Shown: positions 29,635-63,910 of the stretch, in pieces
Position numbering within the stretch: position 1 is the first letter of the stretch
Layout: the number at the start of each line of letters is the position of its first letter
Source: an uncultured Bacilli bacterium
GTDB lineage: Bacteria > Bacillota_I > Bacilli_A > RF39 > UBA660
Direction of reading: 5' to 3'
Length of the DNA stretch: 64,000 nucleotides
NCBI GenBank assembly: GCA_963931065.1
Contig: OZ006970.1
Span: 139,458-203,457, forward strand
Program-made: the position numbers and the translations under genes
Notes under the pieces: generated by a model
Told to the model about the DNA's origin: nothing
What the model saw: the letters and a program-made list of their open reading frames with translations, nothing else
Database searches by the model: none

Positions 29635-31458
29635 TTATTGTATGGTAATCTCGAAAGGTTGTTCTTTAGTACCTAGACCTCCTGTTATTATTACGTTAGA
29701 TTTTAGATTGATAGTTGGTTTAACTGCAACAGAATTTGTCGTAGATACAACATACCTACCATAATTGTCAACATAAACAGTACGAATATTATATGAATTA
29801 TAAGGTGTTAAAGTCCAATACCATATATCATTTGTATATATATCAAATTGACCAGCCATTAATTCTCCATATCTTAACAAACCCACTTTAGCATCAGTTG
29901 TTGTAACATATCCTGACATACTAGTATCTCTATATTTTGCTAATTTATAACTTGCACCGCTTCCTACTGTTCCTAGATACCATGTTGTACTATCTTCTAT
30001 CATATCACTATATGTACTATCTACATAACTATTTAAATATTCCCCATTTAAAAATGTACCAATTACACTATTAGTTGAATAATTAACTTCAATATTTGAA
30101 CTTCCAAATGCACTTGTTATAAAGGTACCAGAACTCTTTAATGGTTCGGCACTTACTATTTTTGTTCCTGTTCCATTTTCATGGCTTACTATTCTATATA
30201 GATTATTTTCATCATTTCCAAATCTTACATACTCACCACTATATCTTGTATTAAGCATAGTCCCTGATAAATTACTGTCATTATCTCCTTCTAAGCGATA
30301 GGGATTATCTAAAGTTCCATTACCATCAACGATTTTGACACTAAATTTTAGATTTATTGATGGTCTAATGCCAAATGTATAGCTTGACACAGAAGTATAG
30401 CGATTTATATTTCCAAAATTTTCAATAATTAAACATGGAGTTAAAGTCCACCACCAAAGTCCATTATTTAAATATCCATTACCATAGGTTGTTCCCGTAT
30501 AACTAGACTGATATTCATATATATTAAGTAGACCAACTGCATCAGTTACAGTCGTTGTTCCATTCGGTCTTGTTATACTTCCTAATTCTGTAGAACCCAA
30601 TGTCGCATCCCATACACTATCTGTTACGATAAAGTTTTCATAATCTCTTAAATTTCCTAGAAAACCATCTATACTAGTATCATTTAACCAGTCTTCCATA
30701 TGACTTTCTTCAAATGCACCACTATCATCATCATAACTGATTGCACTTATATTCCATTGTGTTACTAACTTAGTTGTCTTGGCATCATTATTTACAGACA
30801 CCGCTCTCCATAATTTACCAGAGTACCATATATAATTATTAGGGTCTTCTCCTGTTATGAAGGTATCTTCTCCATCATCATAAGTTGAACCATTTTCTCC
30901 TGGTTCTAATACATAATCTGCAACAGTCTCCTTTTTTGCTTCTTCAAATAAATGCCCATTACTAGGTAAACTTAAATCATTATAATCTAGCCCTACTCCT
31001 ACTCCTAATGTAATTGTTACACTACTACTAGATTCATTCTTTACTCTTATCTTATATATATTACTAGAACCAGAACTACCACTTGCTGTTAAATTAGCAC
31101 CTTTCTCCCCCATTGGTATATTTATTCCTTCTCCTGTTTTATAACCTACTTCTACACCACTAGCTAAACTTCCTTCATAATAAAAGTTAAATCTTGCTTC
31201 TCTATTATTAGGATTAGATAATGTTACTGTAAATTCTTTAGTTTCTTTCGCTCCTACTACTAACTTATTACTTTCTACATTATCTACAGTAAGCTTATAC
31301 GTTAAATTACCCGTTACTATACTAATAGCATTACCCTTTTCTTTTGATACTGTAAACATTGCATAAGAAAAGTATCCTCCTAACATTAATAGAGTTACTA
31401 TAATCATTACTATCATATATATTTTACTAAAACTTGTTTCTAATAATAACTTCTTCAT
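29635..31458 (-). CDS. secreted/surface protein, paralog 1 of a tandem-repeat family (unassigned domain family)
   Basis: Start taken at MKKLLLE (RBS gaaaggag), N-terminal signal anchor. Two internal repeats, each with the motifs GLL(N/R)xYE(Y/L), WWTLTP, G(I/V)RP(S/T)INLKS, ending GGxGT(K/L)(E/D)xP(F/Y). Paralogs at 38300..40132 and 60165..63570. Confidence 0.6.
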   Translation of the reverse strand: MKKLLLETSFSKIYMIVMIIVTLLMLGGYFSYAMFTVSKEKGNAISIVTGNLTYKLTVDNVESNKLVVGAKETKEFTVTLSNPNNREARFNFYYEGSLASGVEVGYKTGEGINIPMGEKGANLTASGSSGSSNIYKIRVKNESSSSVTITLGVGVGLDYNDLSLPSNGHLFEEAKKETVADYVLEPGENGSTYDDGEDTFITGEDPNNYIWYSGKLWRAVSVNNDAKTTKLVTQWNISAISYDDDSGAFEESHMEDWLNDTSIDGFLGNLRDYENFIVTDSVWDATLGSTELGSITRPNGTTTVTDAVGLLNIYEYQSSYTGTTYGNGYLNNGLWWWTLTPCLIIENFGNINRYTSVSSYTFGIRPSINLKFSVKIVDGNGTLDNPYRLEGDNDSNLSGTMLNTRYSGEYVRFGNDENNLYRIVSHENGTGTKIVSAEPLKSSGTFITSAFGSSNIEVNYSTNSVIGTFLNGEYLNSYVDSTYSDMIEDSTTWYLGTVGSGASYKLAKYRDTSMSGYVTTTDAKVGLLRYGELMAGQFDIYTNDIWYWTLTPYNSYNIRTVYVDNYGRYVVSTTNSVAVKPTINLKSNVIITGGLGTKEQPFEITIQ

Positions 31459-31473
31459 AAACTTCTCCTTTCT

Positions 31474-31512
31474 AAAACACAAAAAAGAATAGAATAATCC
31501 TATTCTATTCTT
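31474..31512 (-). promoter_or_regulatory. conserved 12-bp-stem hairpin plus T-run (terminator/attenuator-like) in the leader of paralog 1
   Basis: aagaatagaata-ggat-tattctattctt followed by ttttgtgtttt on the minus strand, 15 nt before the RBS. A near-identical hairpin lies at 63684-63713 upstream of paralog 3. Confidence 0.5.
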
Positions 31513-31559
31513 ACATAACAAAAGAAAGTAATATTATTACTTAAATATTTATAAAGCTG

Positions 31560-31568
31560 CCCCCCCCC
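31560..31568 (-). repeat. G9 homopolymeric tract (C9 on plus strand) upstream of paralog 1
   Basis: The only long G/C homopolymers in this AT-rich window are this one and 63759-63767. Both sit in the same conserved module upstream of paralogous genes. Confidence 0.8.
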
Positions 31569-31670
31569 ATGTAGCATTTATGATATATTTATCCATAAAA
31601 TTTACCTTCTTTCTTACTATTTTTATTAACTTAATAATATCAAAAAAATAGAACTTAAACAAGTCCTATT

Positions 31671-32405
31671 TTATCTACTTTTAATTAAAGCTATATAATT
31701 GTTAACCTTACTAGCCCAAGTAGGACTAGCAGCATATTTTGGACCAATAGATTCTGGTGTAGTTAATCCATAAGCATAATAATTACGATATAAGTTATCT
31801 AAATAACCCATAATTCCTTCATCTAGTGTAGCATATGCTTTATAACTTCCTCCACCACAACTAGGTCCACCTTTTTGACCACCTACATTATTACATTCAC
31901 GAACTAAACTACTACAAGTACCATTACATCCAGTCTCATGAAGAATAATAGCAGTTGCCATATAAGGATCAATTCCTAACTGTAAAGAATAACTTGCAAT
32001 TAAGTATCCTTTACCAGAAATAGTAGACTTTAGTGAACGATTAAGCTTATCAGCTAACTCTCCCATAGTTAATCCATCATAAACAATAGGGTCAACTGGA
32101 ACAGTATTAACTTCATCATAAGTCTTAACATCTTCTAACTCTTCTTCAATAACTACTTCTTCAACCTTTTCAATATCAGTAGTAGTTACATCTTCTACTT
32201 TATTATTAGATTCTTCTTTAGTAATATTTTTATTCTTATTATTATCTTCTTTATTACCAGCATAAGAATCATTCATTGTCACAGTTTCATAAGCTACAGT
32301 ATTCTCTTCTATTTGAAAAGCTTTATACTGTAATACTCCAGCCAAGCCTATCATAAAAACACCAATAGATGCCAACGTAAGACTCAGCTTACTAACTTTT
32401 TTCAT
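31671..32405 (-). CDS. membrane-anchored glucosaminidase-domain protein (LytD/FlgJ-type N-acetylglucosaminidase-like)
   Basis: Start at MKKVSKLSL (RBS gaaggagg). C-terminal AIILHETGCNGTCSSLVRECNNVGGQKG matches the glucosaminidase (PF01832-like) pattern. Confidence 0.5.
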   Translation of the reverse strand: MKKVSKLSLTLASIGVFMIGLAGVLQYKAFQIEENTVAYETVTMNDSYAGNKEDNNKNKNITKEESNNKVEDVTTTDIEKVEEVVIEEELEDVKTYDEVNTVPVDPIVYDGLTMGELADKLNRSLKSTISGKGYLIASYSLQLGIDPYMATAIILHETGCNGTCSSLVRECNNVGGQKGGPSCGGGSYKAYATLDEGIMGYLDNLYRNYYAYGLTTPESIGPKYAASPTWASKVNNYIALIKSR

Positions 32406-32485
32406 AGTTCCTCCTTCAAATAAGAACAATATAATTGTACCAAATATCTATATATTTGTCAAATTTGACACCCGAACCTATTATA

Positions 32486-35400
32486 TTATATGTTTTTTAT
32501 TGACTTTTTATTGTTTTTATTTCTATAAGAAATATACATCAAAGTACCACCTATTATAATCAACAATCCACCTATTAAATAAATATATGTAGCATTACTT
32601 CCTGTATTTGGTACTTCTACTGGTTTTGAATTAAACATTACTTCACTTTGAATATCTCCTGTCTCTAAAACATTAAATTCAACTACTGATGTATTTAAGA
32701 TATATCCATCTGGTGCTATTGTTTCAGTAAGAGTATATTTACCAACTGGAAGCTTTTCTATATAATGTGGAGTATTACTTGATATCCATTCTTCTACAAT
32801 ATTACCATTACTATCTCTAATTACTAAATGAGCCCCTTCTACTTCTACACTATTGGCCATATCAAGTTTACTTATATTTATCTTTGTAAAGTCATTAACA
32901 TAATTTATTATACTTACATTACTATCATCAGTAACACTAAAGTATATAGGACTATTATTAACAATTACTCCATCTGGTGTATCTAATTGTTTTAATACAT
33001 AGTCACCCAACTCTAAAGTATCACTAATATAACCATCTTTAGTAGTCTCAAACTCATCAACTACTTCTCCTGTTCTAGTCTCTAAGCTATACTTATATCC
33101 TTCTTCTGCATCTACTACTAATTTTCTATCATTAACACTAACAGTAGTAACATCATTACTAATATTAACAGTCTGAACTTTACCTGTCTCTAATACTTCA
33201 AAAGTAATTTTAGAACCCGTTCCCACATAACCAGCTGGAGCCTCTAATTCTTCTAAAATATAAATACCAGCTGATAATCTAACTTGATAAGGCTCATTTG
33301 TACTAATAAACTCTATAGAATCAAAATCTCCATTTTCTTTAGTCAATCTCATTCGAGCCCCTGCTATATATTCTCCATTCCTAGCATCTATCTTACCTAA
33401 GTTTACTATTATTGGTTTATTTTCAATTTCAAGATTAATTTCTTCTGTAGTATCTTCAATAACTAATTCATGAAAACTCTCATCTAAAATATACCCATCA
33501 GGAGCTTGTTTTTCTTTTATATAATAAGTACCAACTTCTAAAGTAGATAAATCTATACTACTTACATCAGTTAAATCTATATCTCTAATATATTCTTTAT
33601 TATTATTGTATAAGCCTAATATTGATCCTAAAATAGGCTCTTTACTTTCACTATCTATCTTTGTAACAGTAACTTTTCTTTTTTTATTAGATAATTTATA
33701 TACAAAAGTACTATCACTATTAGCATTAAAATCTATTTCTAATACTTCACTAGTTCTAACATAACCATCAGGAGCTTTAACTTCTTCTAATTTATATTTC
33801 CCATAAGGAACATTTATTTCTGTTGGAACATTACTACTTGTAAATGTTTCAACTTCATCTCCATTACTATTGGTAAGTCTCAATGTTGCATCTGCAACAT
33901 ATTCTTCAGTATCAGCATCTACTTTTCCAATATTTATAAAAGATTTAACATTTTTCATTGTTACTTGAATACTTGTAGTATTTTCATCTATCGTAAAGCT
34001 TTCTCTTTCTTTATTTAAAGCATAACCACTAGGTGCCTCTATTTCTTCTACATAATATGTACCTGGACTTAATTTATCAAGAGTATATGCTTCTTTAATA
34101 GTAGTAAATGTCTCTATCTCATCACCAATACTATTAGTAACTCTTAACTTTGCTCCACTTAAAGGATTACCTTCTTCATCAACTTTATTTATAACTACTT
34201 GATTATTTGAATTATAGAATGTTACAGTCTTAGCTTCTTCCTCTTCACCAGTAATAGTAACAGGAACTTCACTATTACTAAGAGTATACCCATTTGGAGC
34301 TTCTACTTCTATTACTTTATATTCTCCTTTAACAAGCCCTTTTATACTATGTGCACTATCATCACTAGTCCACTCATCAATAATTTGATTATCACTTACT
34401 CTTACAAGTCTTAATCTTGCCCCACTAACAAACTTATTATCTAAATCTTTTTTCTCTATCAAAACTTCATTTTTTTCGTCTTTAAAATCAACAGTAACAC
34501 TAGTATTATTTTTATCAATAGTAAATTCTTTTTCTTTACTATTTATAAAATAACCATCAGGTGCACTTACTTCTACTACTTTATAAGTACCTTCTTGCAT
34601 TTTAGAAGTATCAACTTCTACATAATCATTAGTTGTTGTTATTGTATCAACTACTTCATTATTACTATTAACTATATTTAATACTGCTCCACTAACTACA
34701 TTACCTGTATCACTATCTATTTTTCTTATTCTTACATCATACTTTGAATTAGTAATCGTACTACTAATATTTAAATCACTATCACTTATTACTACATTAG
34801 TACTCTCTTTATCTATATAATATCCATTAGGAGCTTTTACCTCTTTTATCTCATACTCTCCTGGTAATAAGTTATCTATTACATAATCCTCAGTTGTAGT
34901 AATAAAGTTTGCTACACTCTTATTTGTTGCCTTTCTAATTACTTCTATACTAGCACCTTCCAAAGGAGTATTATCACTACTATCTACCTTTTTTATTGTT
35001 AAACTTCCACTTGGCATTTTAACACTAGCAGATACGGTCTTCTGTTTAGGTACACCTACAAGTGTACTAACAACTGACTGTTGCATTGTATCTACCATAT
35101 CACTAGGAGGATCATAACTGTAAGCAACATATTCTGTATAATTTACTATCACATTTATATTTACATTTATAGGATTATCTATCTTAGATAAATCTACTCT
35201 TAATTTAAAACCTTCTCCACTATTTATAGTATTAGTACCTACTACAACATCACTACTATTAAGAACTTCAACTGCACTATTATCTATACTAACAGCATAA
35301 CTATCATAACTAACATTACTATTTACAGTTATTAAATCAGTAATTAAATATCTATTATCACTACTTAATTTAAAATCACTAGTAGAAATATTAAAACTAG

Positions 35401-36016
35401 GATTAATTGTAACAGGATTATTTTTAGCATAAACTGCCCCTGTTATTAATGGTTCTATAACACTATAATAAGAACTGTTTTTAATAACTTTTTTTTGATT
35501 AGCAGTTAAAACTCCATCAATATCATCACTAACACCACTTACCCTATCTTGATAAAACCAAATTGCAACTTGTGTTAAATAATCATCATTTTTATCATTA
35601 CCAGTTAAACTTTTATTAGGATAAGCATTTTGTAAGATATAAACATAACCTGCATCAAGAGGAACTTCATTTTTAGTAATAGTTTTAGGACTATCATTCT
35701 TTGGCCAATCTTTATCTTTTTCTAGACAATAAACTGTATATCTATTACTACCATCATAAGCATAATATGGTACTAAAGATATAATTTCATCTTCACTTAA
35801 TCCCTCACTAAATAAAGTAACCCTATCAGTAAGAATATCTCCCATACCAGTCGTTAATGTATCAGGTAACTCCGTTGGAATAGCATATGAACTTGCTACT
35901 GTTTTACCTAAAAATATAATCATAATAATTGAAAAGAAGATACTAACTGTAACTTTCATCCAATCATTTTCACTTTTCTTAAATAAACTACCAATCTTAC
36001 CTAACATATTCATCAC
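32486..36016 (-). CDS. sortase-anchored surface adhesin: N-terminal thioester domain, multiple CnaB/SpaA-type Ig-like repeats, VPNTG sorting signal
   Basis: 1176 aa. N-terminal region has TVYCLEKD (Cys) and TQVAIWFYQD (Gln), the thioester-domain hallmarks. At least 7 repeats carry the GEYK(I/V)(V/I)EVxAP(N/D)GY motif. C-terminus is VPNTG plus hydrophobic stretch plus KNNKKS. Confidence 0.7.
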   Translation of the reverse strand: MMNMLGKIGSLFKKSENDWMKVTVSIFFSIIMIIFLGKTVASSYAIPTELPDTLTTGMGDILTDRVTLFSEGLSEDEIISLVPYYAYDGSNRYTVYCLEKDKDWPKNDSPKTITKNEVPLDAGYVYILQNAYPNKSLTGNDKNDDYLTQVAIWFYQDRVSGVSDDIDGVLTANQKKVIKNSSYYSVIEPLITGAVYAKNNPVTINPSFNISTSDFKLSSDNRYLITDLITVNSNVSYDSYAVSIDNSAVEVLNSSDVVVGTNTINSGEGFKLRVDLSKIDNPINVNINVIVNYTEYVAYSYDPPSDMVDTMQQSVVSTLVGVPKQKTVSASVKMPSGSLTIKKVDSSDNTPLEGASIEVIRKATNKSVANFITTTEDYVIDNLLPGEYEIKEVKAPNGYYIDKESTNVVISDSDLNISSTITNSKYDVRIRKIDSDTGNVVSGAVLNIVNSNNEVVDTITTTNDYVEVDTSKMQEGTYKVVEVSAPDGYFINSKEKEFTIDKNNTSVTVDFKDEKNEVLIEKKDLDNKFVSGARLRLVRVSDNQIIDEWTSDDSAHSIKGLVKGEYKVIEVEAPNGYTLSNSEVPVTITGEEEEAKTVTFYNSNNQVVINKVDEEGNPLSGAKLRVTNSIGDEIETFTTIKEAYTLDKLSPGTYYVEEIEAPSGYALNKERESFTIDENTTSIQVTMKNVKSFINIGKVDADTEEYVADATLRLTNSNGDEVETFTSSNVPTEINVPYGKYKLEEVKAPDGYVRTSEVLEIDFNANSDSTFVYKLSNKKRKVTVTKIDSESKEPILGSILGLYNNNKEYIRDIDLTDVSSIDLSTLEVGTYYIKEKQAPDGYILDESFHELVIEDTTEEINLEIENKPIIVNLGKIDARNGEYIAGARMRLTKENGDFDSIEFISTNEPYQVRLSAGIYILEELEAPAGYVGTGSKITFEVLETGKVQTVNISNDVTTVSVNDRKLVVDAEEGYKYSLETRTGEVVDEFETTKDGYISDTLELGDYVLKQLDTPDGVIVNNSPIYFSVTDDSNVSIINYVNDFTKINISKLDMANSVEVEGAHLVIRDSNGNIVEEWISSNTPHYIEKLPVGKYTLTETIAPDGYILNTSVVEFNVLETGDIQSEVMFNSKPVEVPNTGSNATYIYLIGGLLIIIGGTLMYISYRNKNNKKSIKNI

Positions 36017-38299: not shown

Positions 38300-40132
38300 T
38301 TATCCTAGTTCTATTATAAAAGGATCTAATTTAGTACCTGTACCTCCAGTTATTATGACATTTTCTTTAAGACTTAATGTTGGTTTTATTGCATTAGTTG
38401 TTGTTGGAGCGACATTAAAACTACTACCATATTGTCCAATACGGCGCATTACATACTGGTTATTCGGAGTTATAAGCCAATATGATGTATTATTTTCTTC
38501 TCTATCAAATTGGCCTGCCATTAACTCCCCTAATCTTAATAACCCTACTGTAGCATTTGTTGTATTTGAAGTTAATGTATTACCAGTTTCATCTGTGTAT
38601 TTAGCTAACTTATATGAAATGCCACCTTCACTTACACCTCCTAGATACCAAATTGTATCATCTACTATCATGGCACTATAATTATTGTCAACATAATTTG
38701 TTAAGTATTCACCATTAAGAAAACTTCCTATTGTATTTGTACTTGAAAAAGCTATATCATCACCAAAAGGAGTTACTTTAAATGTTTCAGAGTCTTTAAG
38801 GGAAATATCACTTGTTATTTTTGTTAAACTATTAGTCTCATGACTCACTATTCTATAAAGATTATTATTATCAGTTCCAAACTTAACATATTCTCCACTA
38901 TAACGAGTATTAAGTTTTACACCATTTAGATCTTTATCATTATCTCCTTCAAGGCGATAAGGATCATCTAATGTTCCATTGCCATCTACAATCTTAACAT
39001 TAGATTTTAAATTTATGGAAGGACGTATCCCTAAAGCATTTTTACCATCAAAACAATTACTATTTCCCAAATTATCTATTTCATTCATACTTATATCACT
39101 ATATGGTGTTAATATCCACCAATGAAGACCATTATTTAAATAACCATCACTATTGCTTGTTCCTTTAAAACTCTCTTGATATTCATATAAATTAAGTAAC
39201 CCTACTGTAGCAGTTACAATAGTACCACTATCACTAGGTCTTTTTACATTTCCTAAACTAGAAGAATCCGTTGTTGCATTCCATTTAGAATTTGTTACAA
39301 TAAAATTATCAACATCTCTTAAATTATATAAAAAACCATCTACTGTCATATCATTTAACCATTCTTCCATATAACTTCCTTCAAAAACTGTGTTATCCTT
39401 GGAATAAGGAATTGTACTTATATCCCATTGAGTTACTACTTTAGCTGTTTTTTCTTCATTATTAACACTAACTATCCTCCATAGTTTTCCACTATACCAA
39501 AGATAATTATTAGGAAATTGTCCTGTTGTAAAAGTATCTACTGTATCGTTATATATATTATCCTTACTGATATTACTAAGTGCAACTGTTCCTATTTCTC
39601 CTTCATGGGTTATTTCTTCTAATATGTGACCATTACTTGGTAAAGATAAATCATTATAATCTAACCCTACCTCTACACCTAAATTAATCGTTACACTACT
39701 TCCTGAATTATTTATTACTCTTATTACATAAGTATTACTTGAACCTACTGTTCCTGTTTTTTCTAAATTTATCCCTTTTTCGGTAGGTAAAACATTTGTT
39801 TCTTCTTTATTTATATATCCTATTTTAATGTTAGTTGGTAAATCATCCAAATAATAAAAATTGAATCTTGCTTTTCTATTATTAGGGTTACTTAACTCAA
39901 CTTTAAAATCTTTTACCGTATTTGAAGGAACAGTTAGAGTATTATTTTCTATATCATCAATAGTGAGATTATAAATTAAATTACCTGTTACAATCGTTAT
40001 AGCATTATTCTTTTCTTTTGTTACTGTAAACATAGCATAAGAGAAATATCCTCCTAATACTAATAAAATTACTATAATCATTACTATTATATACATTTTA
40101 GTAAAACTTACCTCTAAGAATAATTTTTTCAT
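38300..40132 (-). CDS. secreted/surface protein, paralog 2 of the tandem-repeat family
   Basis: N-terminal 60 aa nearly identical to paralog 1. Same internal repeat motifs (GLLNLYEYQES, HWWILTP, LGIRPSINLKSN, GGTGTKLDPF). Confidence 0.6.
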   Translation of the reverse strand: MKKLFLEVSFTKMYIIVMIIVILLVLGGYFSYAMFTVTKEKNNAITIVTGNLIYNLTIDDIENNTLTVPSNTVKDFKVELSNPNNRKARFNFYYLDDLPTNIKIGYINKEETNVLPTEKGINLEKTGTVGSSNTYVIRVINNSGSSVTINLGVEVGLDYNDLSLPSNGHILEEITHEGEIGTVALSNISKDNIYNDTVDTFTTGQFPNNYLWYSGKLWRIVSVNNEEKTAKVVTQWDISTIPYSKDNTVFEGSYMEEWLNDMTVDGFLYNLRDVDNFIVTNSKWNATTDSSSLGNVKRPSDSGTIVTATVGLLNLYEYQESFKGTSNSDGYLNNGLHWWILTPYSDISMNEIDNLGNSNCFDGKNALGIRPSINLKSNVKIVDGNGTLDDPYRLEGDNDKDLNGVKLNTRYSGEYVKFGTDNNNLYRIVSHETNSLTKITSDISLKDSETFKVTPFGDDIAFSSTNTIGSFLNGEYLTNYVDNNYSAMIVDDTIWYLGGVSEGGISYKLAKYTDETGNTLTSNTTNATVGLLRLGELMAGQFDREENNTSYWLITPNNQYVMRRIGQYGSSFNVAPTTTNAIKPTLSLKENVIITGGTGTKLDPFIIELG

Positions 40133-40182
40133 AACACTCCTCCTTCATACAGTATTAAGATATAATTGTTCACAATTATATC

Positions 40183-40863
40183 TTAATAACCAACTCTTAA
40201 TATTTTAAAAGTGGCATTCAAACTACTACCATAATTTATCGCTTCCCTACTTGTTTCAAATAATAAATCAAAATCATATAATCTATCAAAACCTATATTT
40301 CCACCTCTATCTAACACTATCGCTTTAAAACTACCTATCTTACTATTACTTACTTCTATAACTGTCCCAAAAGGAATACATTTATCACTAGCAAGTATTC
40401 TTAAAGAACCATAAGTAGAATCTTCATAATAAATAGTTTCACTTATATTATACTCTGATGCAGTTAAATCACCTATATCAGAGCCATAACCACTCATAGT
40501 ACCAGTAAAAGTAGAGCCTACTGTAATAGATGGAATATATACTTCCTCTTTAGGAGTTTCATATTCTATTTTCTCATCTTTTCCTATAACTTCATCTTCT
40601 TTAGGTCCCTCTACTACTTTTGGTACTTCCTCTACTACAGATTTCTCTTCTTCTTTAACTTCTTCTTTTTCTTCTAAAGAAACATCTTCAAGAGGTACAA
40701 CTTCTATAACTTCTTCTTTTACAATAGCATCACTATTTACATAAGTAATCTTATTATTTACATCTATATTTTTTACATCAGGTTTAGTGGTACTAACAAG
40801 TAAACAACACCCCATAAATATAATAGCATTAATAATATAAATAGTTTTTCTCATAAATATCAC
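40183..40863 (-). CDS. 3D-domain (RlpA-like double-psi beta-barrel) cell-wall-associated protein with signal peptide
   Basis: Signal peptide, acidic E/K/V-rich linker, and C-terminal GTMSGYG...ASDKCIPFGTVIEV...AIVLDRGGNIGFDRLD matching 3D-domain proteins such as YocH/YabE. Confidence 0.5.
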   Translation of the reverse strand: MIFMRKTIYIINAIIFMGCCLLVSTTKPDVKNIDVNNKITYVNSDAIVKEEVIEVVPLEDVSLEEKEEVKEEEKSVVEEVPKVVEGPKEDEVIGKDEKIEYETPKEEVYIPSITVGSTFTGTMSGYGSDIGDLTASEYNISETIYYEDSTYGSLRILASDKCIPFGTVIEVSNSKIGSFKAIVLDRGGNIGFDRLYDFDLLFETSREAINYGSSLNATFKILRVGY

Positions 40864-56293: not shown

Positions 56294-56730
56294 TGCGAAC
56301 CTCCCATATTTTTCTTTATAAACTCTCTTGTATAAAACTGATATTTATCACTATGAGAAAGTTTATAAGCTTTTCTATAACCTTTATCTTTTTTATTTTC
56401 TAACTTTTTATTAAGTTCATCTAAACTAAGAAAAACACTTGTTCCAAAAGATGTCTCTAAAACATTTAAGTATTCCATATCTACATCTTTATCATAGCAT
56501 CTTTCTCCTAACATTCCTACAATACCATTATTAACAGAATATAATTGTAATATTTTCTGTTCTTCTAAATTACTAAAAACTTCAGAATAAGACTTCAACA
56601 ATTCTATCTCATCACCATCTAAACAAATAGGATAAACTCCATCTTCTGTAGTCTTTAAATACCCTCCAGAAATATTTCCATACTCACCACTAATTCCTAA
56701 GGTATAACCCTGTTCTAATTTCTTAATCAT
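56290..56730 (-). CDS. hypothetical protein
   Basis: 146 aa. Overlapping start/stop with flanking genes (ATGA couplings) implies co-translation with nrdG2. Confidence 0.3.
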   Translation of the reverse strand: MIKKLEQGYTLGISGEYGNISGGYLKTTEDGVYPICLDGDEIELLKSYSEVFSNLEEQKILQLYSVNNGIVGMLGERCYDKDVDMEYLNVLETSFGTSVFLSLDELNKKLENKKDKGYRKAYKLSHSDKYQFYTREFIKKNMGGSQ

Positions 56731-57275
56731 ACTAGTTCCTCCTCTAATATTTTACTATTATCTATATATAATACCTTCTTATTCTTTTTTAAACTATTAG
56801 GAACATCAATAATACACTGATTACTACTACCTACATAATGTATTTTCTCTGAAGCTAGTTTCAAAACAAATCTCCCATCAAGTAATACATCTATATTATT
56901 TAAAATAGTATCTAAATCTTTATCAGTCTTCATCTGTTCTAACAACTCTTCCCATGTATAACCTGTATAAAGCCAAATAGTTTTATCTCTAAACTTCTCT
57001 CTAATCTCTTTAACTAATTTAGATATTTCTTCTCTATTTCCAAAAAACAAAGGATCCCCCCCTGATAAAGTTATACCACTACACCATTCTTTCTCTAATT
57101 CATCGAAAATTTCTTTTTTAGCATCTTCATCAAAGACTAAACCATCATTAGGATCCCAAGTCATAGCATTTTGACAAGCATGGCAATGATGAGAACAGCC
57201 TGATACCCACAAAACAACTCTAAGTCCTTCACCATTAAGCATATCTGCCTTTGTTATATTATGATATCTCATCAC
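56727..57275 (-). CDS. nrdG: anaerobic ribonucleoside-triphosphate reductase activating protein (copy 2)
   Basis: CSHHCHAC radical-SAM motif; 182 aa; overlaps the nrdD2 stop. Confidence 0.8.
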   Translation of the reverse strand: MMRYHNITKADMLNGEGLRVVLWVSGCSHHCHACQNAMTWDPNDGLVFDEDAKKEIFDELEKEWCSGITLSGGDPLFFGNREEISKLVKEIREKFRDKTIWLYTGYTWEELLEQMKTDKDLDTILNNIDVLLDGRFVLKLASEKIHYVGSSNQCIIDVPNSLKKNKKVLYIDNSKILEEELV

Positions 57276-60595: not shown

Positions 60596-62092
60596 CTTAT
60601 AACCGGACAGTTTTTAAAATGATATAAAAATGACCTAGAGATTATCTAAGTCATTTTGTCTCTTAAAATTGAAATAAACAACCTTTTTTGATATTCTTAT
60701 ATAGAAAACAAAATAAAGAATAGAGGTTGTTTATGAATAAAGTATATAATACACAAGAAGAAATCGCAAGTAAAATGAAAGAAATTTTATTAAAAAGTAA
60801 TCCTTATATCAGAAAGACACAACTTAAAATTATTCCTTATATATCTTTAGGTATGATTTTATCTGAATCTTCTGTTGCAAGTGACATCGCAAAACATCTT
60901 AAAAATGATTTTTCTTTAGTTCAATTTGATTCTGTTATCAGAAGAATTAAACGTTTCTTTAAAAATAAATTATTTAATCCTTATGAATTTTATGATCAAA
61001 TTATTAAATATGTTATCTCTAATTATAAAACTAAACATTCTGACAAGACTGTTCATATTACTTTTGATCATATGTTTTCTCATGATAATTATACTGTTTT
61101 TATGATTTCTATGAGAGTTGGTAAACAAGGTATTCCTTTATGGTTTAGATGTTTTGAAAACAAAGATGATTCTGATGCTTTTAGTGAAGAACTGATTAAA
61201 GAAGGTATTTCTTATGTTTCTAATCTTTTTGATTCTTCCTATAAATTAATATTTCTTGCCGATAGATGGTTTAAATCCATTTCTTTGATGCAACACATTG
61301 ATTCATTAGGACATACTTTCTGTATTAGACTAAAAAATAACATTAAAGTATTTGTTTATGATAAAAAAGAGGGTCATAGGATTTGGAAATTTATTGAAGA
61401 TATAAAACCTCTTATGTATCACTCTAGAATTTTTAGAGATGTTTTACTTACTAATTACTCTTATAAAACTAACATAGTTATTAGTAAAAAAGATAGTGTT
61501 GATGAGCCTTGGATTATTGTCACTAACGGAGATCCTAAAAGAGCCATTAAAGATTATGGTTACCGTTTTGGTTCTATTGAAACTTTATTTAAAAATCAAA
61601 AATCTAACGGGTTTTATATAGAGTCCGTTGTTAAAGCAGGATTAGATTATTTTACCTCAATGTATTCTATAACCTGTTTTACAATTCTTTTCTTAACTAT
61701 ATTAGGTGCAGATTATTCTAAAAACACAAAATGTTATAAAAAAGTAAAAATAACTACTCATAAACACTTTATTCAAAATGGAGTTAGAATAAAGAAAAGA
61801 GTAATGTCTTTATTTAACACAGGACTTACTCTATTTCATCTTGCCTTTAACTCCTCGAGATACATTAGACTACCCTTTTCTTTTATTCTTTATGACATCT
61901 AAAAAAATTGAAAAAATTAAAGTTCTTTTTGTCGTGTATTAATTTATGTAAAAAGTGTAACTTTTAGTATCAAAAGTTACACTTTTTCTTCATTTAATCA
62001 TCTTTGCTACCAATTCATATACTGTTGGTCGTACTTTTATATCTATTTTCCCTTTGTTTTCCAACACTTTAATTAGAACTGTCCGTTGCTAA
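60596..62092 (+). mobile_element. IS4-family-like insertion sequence (about 1.5 kb) with 10-bp target site duplication
   Basis: Duplicated target gttcctatag at 60586-60595 and 62093-62102. Imperfect terminal IRs (cttataaccggacag / ctgtccgttgctaa). Rejoining the flanks restores ...SNTIGTFLNGEY..., the intact paralog sequence. Confidence 0.7.
60727..61902 (+). CDS. DDE transposase (IS4-like, DDE_Tnp_1 type)
   Basis: 391 aa with IFLADRWF and a C-terminal Y-x2-R-x4-E-x6-K-like signature (YGYRFGSIETLFKNQK). Confidence 0.55.
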   Translation: MFMNKVYNTQEEIASKMKEILLKSNPYIRKTQLKIIPYISLGMILSESSVASDIAKHLKNDFSLVQFDSVIRRIKRFFKNKLFNPYEFYDQIIKYVISNYKTKHSDKTVHITFDHMFSHDNYTVFMISMRVGKQGIPLWFRCFENKDDSDAFSEELIKEGISYVSNLFDSSYKLIFLADRWFKSISLMQHIDSLGHTFCIRLKNNIKVFVYDKKEGHRIWKFIEDIKPLMYHSRIFRDVLLTNYSYKTNIVISKKDSVDEPWIIVTNGDPKRAIKDYGYRFGSIETLFKNQKSNGFYIESVVKAGLDYFTSMYSITCFTILFLTILGADYSKNTKCYKKVKITTHKHFIQNGVRIKKRVMSLFNTGLTLFHLAFNSSRYIRLPFSFILYDI

Positions 62093-63570
62093 GTTCCTAT
62101 AGTATTACTACTTGAAAAACTAGTATTACTTCCAAAAGTGCTTTCTATATGAGATCCACTATTTTTTAAAGGAACAGCACTTACTATCTTTGTTCCTGTA
62201 CCATTTTCGTGACTTACTATCCTATATAGATTATTTTCATCATTACCAAATTTTATGTATTCTCCACTATATCTACTTGAAAGAAGTGTTACTGAAAGAT
62301 TAGTATCATTATCTCCGTTTAATCTATATGGATCATCTATTGTTCCATCACCGTCTACAATACGAACGCTAGATTTTAGATTTATTGATGGCCGGACGCC
62401 GTGCGCGCCAGACGGACTATAGTAGTCCACGATACCCATGTCGTTCACGCGACGCACGACCGACGCACCGTATGGTGTTAAAGTCCACCAAGTAAGTCCA
62501 TTATTTAAATAACCATTTGTTTCTCCATTATTACTAGACTGATATTCATACATATTTAAAAGTCCTACTGCATCTGTTACTATTGTACCACTATCGCTAG
62601 GTCTTGTTATACTTCCTAAACTAGTTGCATCTAATGTGGCATTCCATTTAGCATCTGTTACAATGAAATTCTCATAATCTCTCAAATTACCTAAGAAACC
62701 ATCTACTGTTGTATCATTTAACCAATCTTCCATATAACTTCCTTCAAAATTAGTTTGTTTCACAGGATTGTATATAGTTGCACTTATATTCCATTGTGTC
62801 ACTAACTTAGTAGATTTCGCTTCATTATTTACAGACACTGCTCTCCATAACTTACCACTATACCATACATAGTTATTAGGGTCAGTGCCAGTTATAAATG
62901 TATCTATATCATCATCATATTGGTTTTCTTTTGGTATATTATTAAGCAAAACAGTTGATACTTCCTCTGCTACTCTATCTTGTCCATATACATTTATCTT
63001 TACACTAAATTGTAAGTTACCTCCATCGCCTTGTGGATTATATTCTTCTGTTACATACATTCTAAGTCTATATCTATTTGTCTCACTAGAATTCATGCTA
63101 CTTGTATATAAACTCATCTCTCCTGATGGTCTTCCTGTGTAATCATTAGCAGTTGCCTCTTCGTTATATACTTCTGGTGTCATTAATTCTTCTTCACCAT
63201 CATCTGTTAATCTTGTTAGATATAATTTTATATTTGAACCATCTATCTTTCTATCTGATGTTGTTACATCTTTCGCGCTTATCTCATAGTTAATATTAAC
63301 ATCTCCTGCTATCTTACTACTTACTGTAAAATCAAAATACTCTCCATCTGTTAATCTTGTCTTACCTGTTTTATCTGTTGTTGGTAAAGCCCCTGTTAAA
63401 CTTATTGTATTATCTGTCTCTTCATAAGACATTGTTATTGATCCTGTTGTTATTGAGTTTAGTTTAGTACCTGTAGCACTATAATTAAATACAGCCCAAC
63501 TTACCCCTATTACTGCTATTACCATTACCATTAACAATACTATTATTATGATATTTTCCTTTTTCTTCAT
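62089..63570 (-). pseudogene. 5' fragment of surface-protein paralog 3 (signal anchor plus first repeat domain), truncated by the IS insertion
   Basis: 493 aa ending ...SSSNTIGT* where the stop is created at the IS junction. Shares the N-terminal architecture and repeat motifs (GLLNMYEYQSS, WWTLTPY, GVRPSINLKSS) with paralogs 1 and 2. Confidence 0.65.
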
Positions 63571-63758
63571 TTTTTACTCCTCCTTTTATTTTTAATAGAC
63601 TTTCCCAAATTACTATCTTTCATACTATATAAATAGTATCATAGGCACCTGCAAATATCAATAATCTTGACATTATAAAAGAATAGAATACCTCTCTACT
63701 CTATTCTTCTTGCACTATAAAAGAAAGTAATTTTATTACTTAAATTACTACTAAACTG

Positions 63759-63767
63759 CCCCCCCCC
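63759..63767 (-). repeat. G9 homopolymeric tract (C9 on plus strand) upstream of paralog 3
   Basis: Second G9 tract, embedded in a module (63684-63770) that is about 85% identical to 31481-31568. Confidence 0.8.
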
Positions 63768-63910
63768 AGATAACATTTTGTAAACACGGAATTTTAGAAA
63801 AATGACGAATTATTTTACCCCAAAAATTAAAATTAGTCATATCTATACCTCCACTTCTCTTATCTTTGTTAACTTAATATTATCATAATCTAAATAATTT
63901 ATGCAATAAC

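Follow-up and report, generated by a model that had tools for sequence, protein, structure and literature searches.

A poly-G tract in a leader reading frame as a candidate phase-variable attenuator of DUF6273 genes in uncultured gut Bacilli

What does a run of nine G residues do in the leader of a gene when the surrounding DNA has only 27% GC? The stretch of DNA analysed here (the window) is 64,000 nucleotides (nt) long and comes from an uncultured Bacilli bacterium whose genome, circular and 1.52 Mb in size, is in a public assembly. Two such tracts, G9 at 31560-31568 and at 63759-63767 (C9 on the plus strand), are present as an initial annotation of the window had described them, each upstream of a gene of the DUF6273 family. 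From sequence comparisons we think it likely that both belong to a phase-variable transcription attenuator, a module in which the length of a poly-G tract inside a leader open reading frame (ORF) governs an intrinsic terminator. The module is probably a heritable on/off switch for a DUF6273 protein family in uncultured gut bacteria.

Two poly-G modules in one window

The two tracts are exceptional for their surroundings. About 0.01 runs of nine or more G or C residues are expected by chance in 64 kb at this composition, and the two G9 tracts are the only ones observed; the sequence GGGGGGGGCAG is likewise found at these two sites only. All genes under discussion lie on the minus strand, and the elements of the first module (copy 1, upstream of the gene for a 607-residue protein) are as follows.

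31634-31662, minus strand: predicted promoter P1, with -35 element TTGTTT (31657-31662), a 17-nt spacer and TG-extended -10 element TATTAT (31634-31639)
31602-31613, minus strand: Shine-Dalgarno sequence of the leader ORF (SD1), GAAAGAAGGTAA, which pairs with 31520-31531 in the minimum-free-energy fold
31549-31596, minus strand: leader ORF (upstream ORF, uORF) of 15 codons, MDKYIINATWGGAAL followed by a stop, in a short frame at G9
31560-31568, minus strand: G9 tract, forming uORF codons W-G-G
31526-31542, minus strand: hairpin 1, AAGUAAU-AAU-AUUACUU
31520-31531, minus strand: CU-rich element, TTACTTTCTTTT, complementary to SD1
31481-31512, minus strand: intrinsic terminator with a 12-bp stem (31501-31512 with 31485-31496), a GGAU loop and T6
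31500-31502, minus strand: TAG stop of the long frame (G8 or G11), at the apex of the terminator stem
31465-31470, minus strand: Shine-Dalgarno sequence of the gene (SD2), AAGGAG, starting 10 nt past the T-run
29635-31470, minus strand: SD2 and the regulated gene (ATG at 31458), encoding 607 residues with an N-terminal hydrophobic segment and DUF6273

The second module (copy 2, upstream of the gene for a 493-residue protein) has its elements in the same order.

63877-63906, minus strand: predicted promoter P1, with TTGCAT, an 18-nt spacer and TG-extended TAATAT
63751-63840, minus strand: leader ORF of 29 residues, MTNFNFWGKIIRHFSKIPCLQNVIWGGAV, ending CLQNVIWGGAV and a stop, in a short frame at G9
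63759-63767, minus strand: G9 tract
63725-63741, minus strand: hairpin 1, AAGTAAT-N3-ATTACTT
63719-63730, minus strand: CU-rich element
63677-63710, minus strand: terminator with a 14-bp stem (63697-63710 with 63677-63690), the 3' arm ending in U4
63696-63698, minus strand: TAG stop of the long frame
63633-63661, minus strand: promoter-like site P2, TTGATA-17-TG-TACTAT, between terminator and gene
62089-63570, minus strand: regulated gene, 493 residues, DUF6273

The identity of about 85% first reported for the two modules is a fair figure, since 83 of 103 aligned columns agree, which is 81% with gaps counted and 86% without. Because the modules align and their tracts are the only G/C runs of nine in a window of 27% GC, the original observation is confirmed. 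The palindrome AAGTAAT-N3-ATTACTT is present in both copies where it had been placed, and the 26-nt motif around it had no match in 100 shuffles. The 12-bp stem and T-run of copy 1 also stand, as do the short ORFs said to read through the tracts, each of which lies behind a Shine-Dalgarno (SD) sequence; that of copy 2 is annotated as a gene in one public assembly. One distance has to be corrected, for the hairpin and T-run of copy 1 had been put 15 nt from the ribosome-binding site and the T-run in fact ends 10 nt before AAGGAG.

The only other G/C run of at least seven in the window is a C7 at 57056-57062. This is a G7 on the coding strand, within the ORF 56727-57275 (...LSGGDPLF...), and could be either a coding run of no special significance or another slippage site, this one inside a gene.

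One long reading frame in every copy

How widespread is the module, and what do its copies share? A scan for the palindrome together with the CU motif, with one genome per species, returned 113 loci, of which about 70 are clearly this module. A second scan anchored on GTTTACA-N4-GTTACCTGGGG added 22 further copies in metagenome assemblies, all 22 of them the same module and six labelled as human gut. The hosts are metagenome-assembled genomes (MAGs) of uncultured gut 'Bacilli' and 'Tenericutes' and Candidatus Onthousia, with at least eight contigs coming from one MAG. A profile search gave 91 hits in total over the sequences searched, and the two modules above are the only ones in the window. 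The module was absent from the viral contigs searched, and a metagenome scan with the exact flanks of copy 1 gave no match. In Rfam 15 only tRNA passed the gathering threshold in the window, relaxed hits to the module scoring 8.8-20 bits against cut-offs of 48-180 bits. The frame analysis uses 72 copies (68 unique sequences), and the tract-length counts come from the first set of 64.

For every copy, the first stop codon was located in each of the three frames 3' of the tract. In 72 of 72 copies and 68 of 68 unique sequences, exactly one frame is open as far as the terminator apex, where its stop precedes the T-run by 16-24 nt, and in all 72 the two remaining frames have already ended when hairpin 1 is reached or just as it begins. 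The rule was computed directly from the sequences and is kept at 18 different distances between tract and terminator, from 64 to 103 nt, and despite insertions of 10 nt and 27 nt. Composition-matched shuffles show the pattern at a rate of 27% per sequence, which gives ~2e-6 for 10 independent lineages; because the copies are related, this value and the naive one bracket the actual significance. A genetic code in which UGA means Trp was ruled out, as TGA terminates 8 of 48 long ORFs.

An arrangement of this kind could work as a switch in the following way. Transcription would start at a sigma-A-type promoter or enter from the upstream gene, and a ribosome would load at the strong SD and translate the short leader ORF containing the G tract. 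In either of the two short frames the ribosome would halt just past the tract, which in copy 1 leaves 28-36 nt to the terminator stem, and the stem would be out of its reach; the terminator would then fold and the DUF6273 gene would stay untranscribed (OFF). In the long frame, the ribosome would continue through both hairpin 1 and the CU-rich element as far as the stop codon at the apex of the terminator, where it would cover the loop and the 3' arm, so that the stem would be blocked and RNA polymerase could continue (ON). Slipped-strand mispairing, by adding or removing one G, would shift a lineage between frames, and the paralogous loci of one genome would switch independently and heritably. 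Of this scheme, we infer the rate of slippage, the block of termination by the ribosome and the identity of the long frame with the ON state.

At G9 the uORFs of the two window copies use a short frame and would thus be OFF, whereas G8 or G11 puts them in the long frame and would turn them ON. The long-frame product is then QLYKYLSNNITFFCYVRIE for copy 1 and QFSSNLSNKITFFYSARRIE for copy 2, each ending at the TAG listed above. Across the family, the long frame is in use in 12 of 72 copies; one nucleotide fewer would be needed in 36 and one more in 24. The 12 long-frame copies are fewer than the expected one third (P = 0.0013), a bias toward the predicted OFF state. The frame of the uORF relative to the terminator-apex stop could serve as a sequence-only predictor of which paralogues are ON or OFF in metagenomes.

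The same counts bear on another explanation, in which the tract is a recoding rheostat. Here RNA polymerase or the ribosome would slip on the G run (by re-pairing of tRNA-Gly on GGG GGG G), and a fixed share of transcripts or ribosomes would enter the long frame in each cell to give constant low read-through. Shifts along G9 or G10 do permit perfect re-pairing, hairpin 1 sits 12-17 nt 3' of the tract much as a frameshift stimulator would, and tract length is constant across a few near-identical loci. However, the required shift is -1 in 36 copies and +1 in 24, so that no single direction fits; moreover, tract length varies widely between copies, some tracts are interrupted, and in natural variants the DNA itself already sets the long frame. 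Because the direction of the needed shift differs between copies, switching at the DNA level fits better. We consider recoding unlikely as the main function, and it could coexist with DNA slippage.

Comparison across related genomes, one of the checks proposed for the original observation, shows that nothing in the module varies as much as the length of the tract and that the rest is conserved. Between conserved flanks, tract lengths span G5 to G13; among the first 64 copies, 28 have G9, 14 have G10 and five have G8, and 11 tracts are interrupted by A. Individual loci were read through contigs encoding the same protein, namely two of the eight for copy 1 and one of the seven for copy 2. Further copy 2 orthologues were defined by synteny (trypsin/PDZ protein, 239-residue protein, uORF, gene). 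In contigs from four samples, one of them the source sample of the 1.52-Mb genome, these orthologues have ATC-G6 where the window has ATCT-G9. The next ~230 nt are the same as in the window except for two homopolymer indels, each in a single contig, and the uORF of the G6 orthologues is set to the long frame (P0128). Another two orthologue contigs (L142, L143) keep G9 and carry an 11-nt insertion, GTCAATCTACA, in a 24-nt motif of the uORF that also brings the long frame (P0124); this motif may be a second indel-prone site. Natural relatives therefore differ in the exact property on which the switch model depends, and these tract and frame variants were computed directly.

Two further contigs (L148, L149) are mosaics. 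Their 5' half, with P1 and the start of the uORF, is identical to window copy 2 (63677-63906), whereas a different type of paralogue supplied the 3' half and the gene, and the two parts meet close to the G tract. The uORF of these mosaics is again in the long frame (P0121). This suggests recombination between paralogous loci inside the conserved module. One could go further and take the module as a 5' cassette for recombination or gene conversion among paralogues in which the G tract is incidental, for which the position of the crossovers speaks. Such a cassette would leave both the terminator covariation described below and the frame rule unexplained, and we find it hard to credit; recombination is more likely a by-product of sequence conservation.

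Conserved parts of the leader

If the tract sets the frame, what do the other parts of the module do? The anatomy and its conservation were again computed directly. Most copies keep the predicted promoter TTTACA/TTGnnn-17/18-TGnTAATAT-TAAGTTAAC, and in copy 1 a conserved TAAGTTAA follows the -10 element of P1. Some modules are without P1 and are placed directly behind the upstream gene. The SD of the leader, AGAAAGAAGGTAA, is conserved 5' of the uORF. The uORF itself comes as a short type of 15 codons (M-R/K-K-x-C-L-Q-x-V-T-W-G-G-A-V) or a long type of 30-40 codons with one or two copies of the 24-nt motif GGTAAAATAATTCGTCAATTYT. The long uORFs (window 63790-63825; L004, L021, L058 and others) have this motif once or twice, in tandem where there are two, and the peptide it encodes is QGKINRQF/WGKLIRQS. 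Just 5' of the tract, GTTTACA-N4-GTTA(C/T)CT (window 63769-63785) is conserved as a nucleotide sequence, third codon positions included. Its TTACCT is complementary to AGGTAA of the leader SD, a second possible pairing that would sequester the SD; copy 1 is without the motif (GCTACAT).

The position of the promoter argues against a reading in which the tract acts on promoter spacing, as the initial annotation had allowed. In that reading the tract would lie between a -35-like TTACCT and a -10-like TAAATA/TAGTAA, and its length would tune the distance between them. A spacing of TTACCT-17-TAAATA/TAGTAA can indeed be drawn at G9. Yet the hexamers are poor, and a better, conserved promoter lies 66-110 nt upstream of the tract, with an SD and an ATG in between. 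In addition, a promoter at the tract would still face the terminator, and the frame rule would be unexplained. We reject the spacing model, to which we give very little weight, because the promoter and SD upstream are conserved and the segment after the tract is variable in both sequence and length.

Between tract and hairpin 1 lies a variable spacer of 12-45 nt. Hairpin 1 is mostly of one sequence across the family, partly through a bias of the first scan, which had demanded the palindrome. Other stems at the same position are TAGTT/AACTA (L122), GTACTT/AAGTAC (L121, L126) and AAATTACCA/TGGTAGTTT (L120). A stem enclosing the tract (GUUUAC/GUAAAU) was also considered, and it fits some spacer variants and not all. 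The terminator, with a stem of 12-16 bp and a T-run, is present in every copy, and direct counts show covariation in its stem: one pair is UA in 30 copies versus CG in 27, and another is AU versus GC. The module does not resemble a classical amino-acid-sensing attenuator of the trp/his type, as no conserved antiterminator hairpin was found in the folds and the repeated codons are only the two GGG of the tract.

The CU-rich element has the family consensus ACTTTCTTTC. Together with the 3' arm of hairpin 1, it is complementary to the leader SD across 12-15 nt, and it fits this SD better than that of the regulated gene. The duplex has a mean energy of -13.1 kcal/mol, versus -6.2 with shuffled SD regions. 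Once transcribed, the element may possibly close the ribosome-binding site of the leader. A model like that of pyrG, in which poly-G pairs with a CU-rich terminator strand, was rejected, as the CU-rich element lies outside the terminator stem and matches the leader SD. We also entertain, as a long shot, that OFF leaders (RNAs of ~150 nt with 12-15 nt of anti-SD sequence) pair in trans with sister leaders and thereby bias which paralogue turns on. If true, this would add mutual exclusion among 10-20 surface-protein genes to the frame switch.

Does the gene depend on read-through of the terminator? In most copies the gene starts 21-42 nt past the T-run with no promoter between, and the gap in copy 1 is too small for one. 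Read-through would be required in direct copies such as copy 1, because 21-42 nt leaves no room for a promoter. These distances bear on the idea that the module is a small gene of its own, in which the RNA from P1 to the terminator, or the peptide of 15-50 residues, acts alone and the downstream gene is driven separately; as a small RNA, it could act on SD sequences through its CU-rich anti-SD stretch. A separate promoter-like site does lie past the terminator in copy 2 and copies like it, and the CU-rich element is complementary to SD1, which all copies share. Most copies have no promoter between terminator and gene, however, and some modules without P1 sit between two genes. The peptide varies in length and at all codon positions, and the long-frame rule would serve no purpose. 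A self-contained small gene is thus improbable in general, though possible for the copies with P2.

Several points weigh against the attenuator model, which we nevertheless prefer. Hairpin 1, the CU element complementary to SD1 and the conserved GTTTACA-N4-GTTACC are not explained by it. Copy 2 and about a dozen others keep a good promoter-like site past the terminator, and since P2 lies between terminator and gene, the module may only modulate, and not gate, expression at such loci. The kinship of the sequences means that 72 of 72 overstates their independence. At the copy 1 locus, G9 is found in two other assemblies, so that three agree. The only G10 there is on a long-read contig from another sample, which is weak evidence because that contig has other homopolymer differences. 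Four pairs of near-identical loci, found by clustering, have equal tract lengths within each pair, though with only four pairs this says little about slippage. Finally, in Firmicutes such as B. subtilis ribosomes often trail RNA polymerase, which would weaken ribosome-mediated antitermination.

P2 (window 63633-63670) also overlaps a near-palindrome, ATGTCAAGATTATTGATAT, that is operator-like in look.

Regulated proteins, known systems and neighbouring features

Which proteins would the switch control? The two module-bearing genes of the window are paralogues, with 69% identity over 271 residues. Their proteins match DUF6273 with E = 1.6e-5 and 1.1e-4, the second at 22.6 bits, which is below the Pfam gathering threshold of 23.5; NCBIfam gave no match for the regulated proteins. 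A third paralogue in the window (38300-40132), 58% identical to the 607-residue protein, is without a module and has no Pfam match. All three share a basic, hydrophobic N-terminus. Every downstream gene found belongs to one superfamily of ~490-650 residues in which this N-terminus is followed by an S/T-Y-A-(A/M/F/L)-(F/L) motif. The family that the module would control is large, with more than 3,000 relatives detected (more than 3,189 at E <= 1e-30). DUF6273 has been modelled as a C-type-lectin-like domain that is varied by diversity-generating retroelements in the receptor-binding proteins of gut phages (PMC10743442). The regulated proteins are plausibly secreted or surface binding proteins, and the DUF6273 link would point to interactions with host, glycans or phages.

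Not all family members would be switched, because a paralogue in the same 1.52-Mb genome but outside the window (P0009; L140:2250-2500), 73% identical to the 607-residue protein, has its own promoter-like region and no module. The third window paralogue is preceded, after its upstream gene, by a perfect 12-bp palindrome at 40157-40184, AAGATATAATTG-tgaa-CAATTATATCTT, with no T-run. In other MAGs (L022, L037, L097, L119) a complete module comes after the orthologue of the upstream gene, whose product ends in FKILRVGY.

A switch of this design has been demonstrated in Streptococcus gallolyticus. In its pil1 and pil3 loci, GCAGA repeats inside a leader-peptide gene alter its frame (Danne 2014, PMC3894217). 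In pil1, short peptides end 39 nt before a terminator and pilus expression is low, whereas out-of-frame peptides end within or after the hairpin, the ribosome prevents termination and expression is high; mutants of the start codon and the stop codon and a deletion of the terminator confirmed the switch (PMC3894217). The predicted layout here is the same, with a promoter, a ribosome-binding site and a leader ORF containing a slippage-prone repeat, followed by an intrinsic terminator and a surface-protein gene. The short leader stop likewise precedes the terminator by a clear margin (28-36 nt in copy 1, 39 nt in pil1), the repeat varies in length (here G5-G13, with G6 versus G9 at one orthologous locus), and a change of frame moves the leader stop into the terminator hairpin, here in 72 of 72 copies. 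The original suggestion that tract length sets the frame of the uORF and its reach toward an attenuator-like hairpin is thus supported by the frame rule, by the variability of the tract, by the differences between orthologues and by this precedent.

There are also differences. The repeat here is a mononucleotide G run as opposed to 13-22 GCAGA units, and the absence of a GCAGA array and of homology indicates, at the sequence level, a resemblance in mechanism and not in descent. The modules described here have strictly one long and two short frames, as well as conserved parts that pil1 lacks (hairpin 1, the 12-15-nt complement to the leader SD and GTTTACA-N4-GTTACC). They occur in many copies per genome before one DUF6273 family, compared with one or two pilus operons, and their hosts are uncultured gut Bacilli known from sequence alone, whereas pil1 was shown experimentally. 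When the literature was searched for leader-peptide switches built on a homopolymer, the S. gallolyticus paper was the sole result. Phase variation by a repeat in a leader peptide coupled to a terminator is found once in the literature searched, in one Streptococcus species. The mechanism is not new, and the poly-G, multi-copy version is undescribed and widespread. An independent poly-G version across uncultured Bacilli of human and animal guts would make attenuation by leader repeats a recurring design.

Homopolymer tracts are known from other surface-protein genes. In the poly-G tracts of Treponema pallidum tpr and Moraxella catarrhalis uspA1 and the poly-C tract of Bordetella fim, they act on promoter spacing or activity or on the untranslated region. 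Like these, the modules here belong to a genome that is AT-rich or small, place a G/C homopolymer of ~8-12 nt in front of a surface-protein gene and would switch stochastically through slippage; they differ in that the tract lies within a translated leader ORF and the readout would be the reading frame. In Mycoplasma hyorhinis vlp, a poly-A tract in the promoter spacer controls lipoprotein products. There too, a relative of the Bacilli with a reduced genome has many paralogues, each with a homopolymer 5' cassette and combinatorial ON/OFF states, unlike the leader ORF, terminator switch and DUF6273 products predicted here. Such combinatorial surface variation in unculturable organisms would become testable by long reads and metatranscriptomes.

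Terminators in leaders have precedents as well. The cwpV gene of Clostridioides difficile, for a phase-variable surface protein of a Firmicute, is switched by site-specific DNA inversion, and when it is OFF its leader contains an intrinsic terminator. In the window copies, no invertible element or flanking inverted repeats were seen. The pyrBI leader ORF of E. coli also extends through its terminator. As in E. coli trp and pyrBI and B. subtilis bmrCD (PMC4191407), the position of the ribosome on a leader ORF would decide whether the terminator forms. In contrast to these systems, the input here would be a heritable change of frame and not amino-acid, nucleotide or antibiotic status, and no clear antiterminator was found.

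Several minor observations concern the surroundings of the module. Upstream of copy 1 is a gene for a 252-residue glucosaminidase (31671-32429), and next but one (32486-36016) is a gene for an LPXTG-anchored protein of 1,176 residues with a thioester domain and nine SpaA-type repeats, an adhesin-like surface protein without a poly-G module. Many short-read metagenome contigs (L116-L137) start or stop within the module, which fits assembly breaks at a multi-copy repeat or a heterogeneous homopolymer. At the copy 1 locus of another sample (L139:606-2110), an insertion sequence (IS) of the ISL3 family lies within the 5' arm of the terminator, with terminal inverted repeats GGTTCTTCGACATTAAAGGGTGCTGAG... 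and an 8-bp target duplication, AGAATAGA. In an unrelated MAG (L046), the same IS end occupies this very position in the terminator. Because the insertion point is the same in both, the terminator hairpin may be a preferred target of this element.

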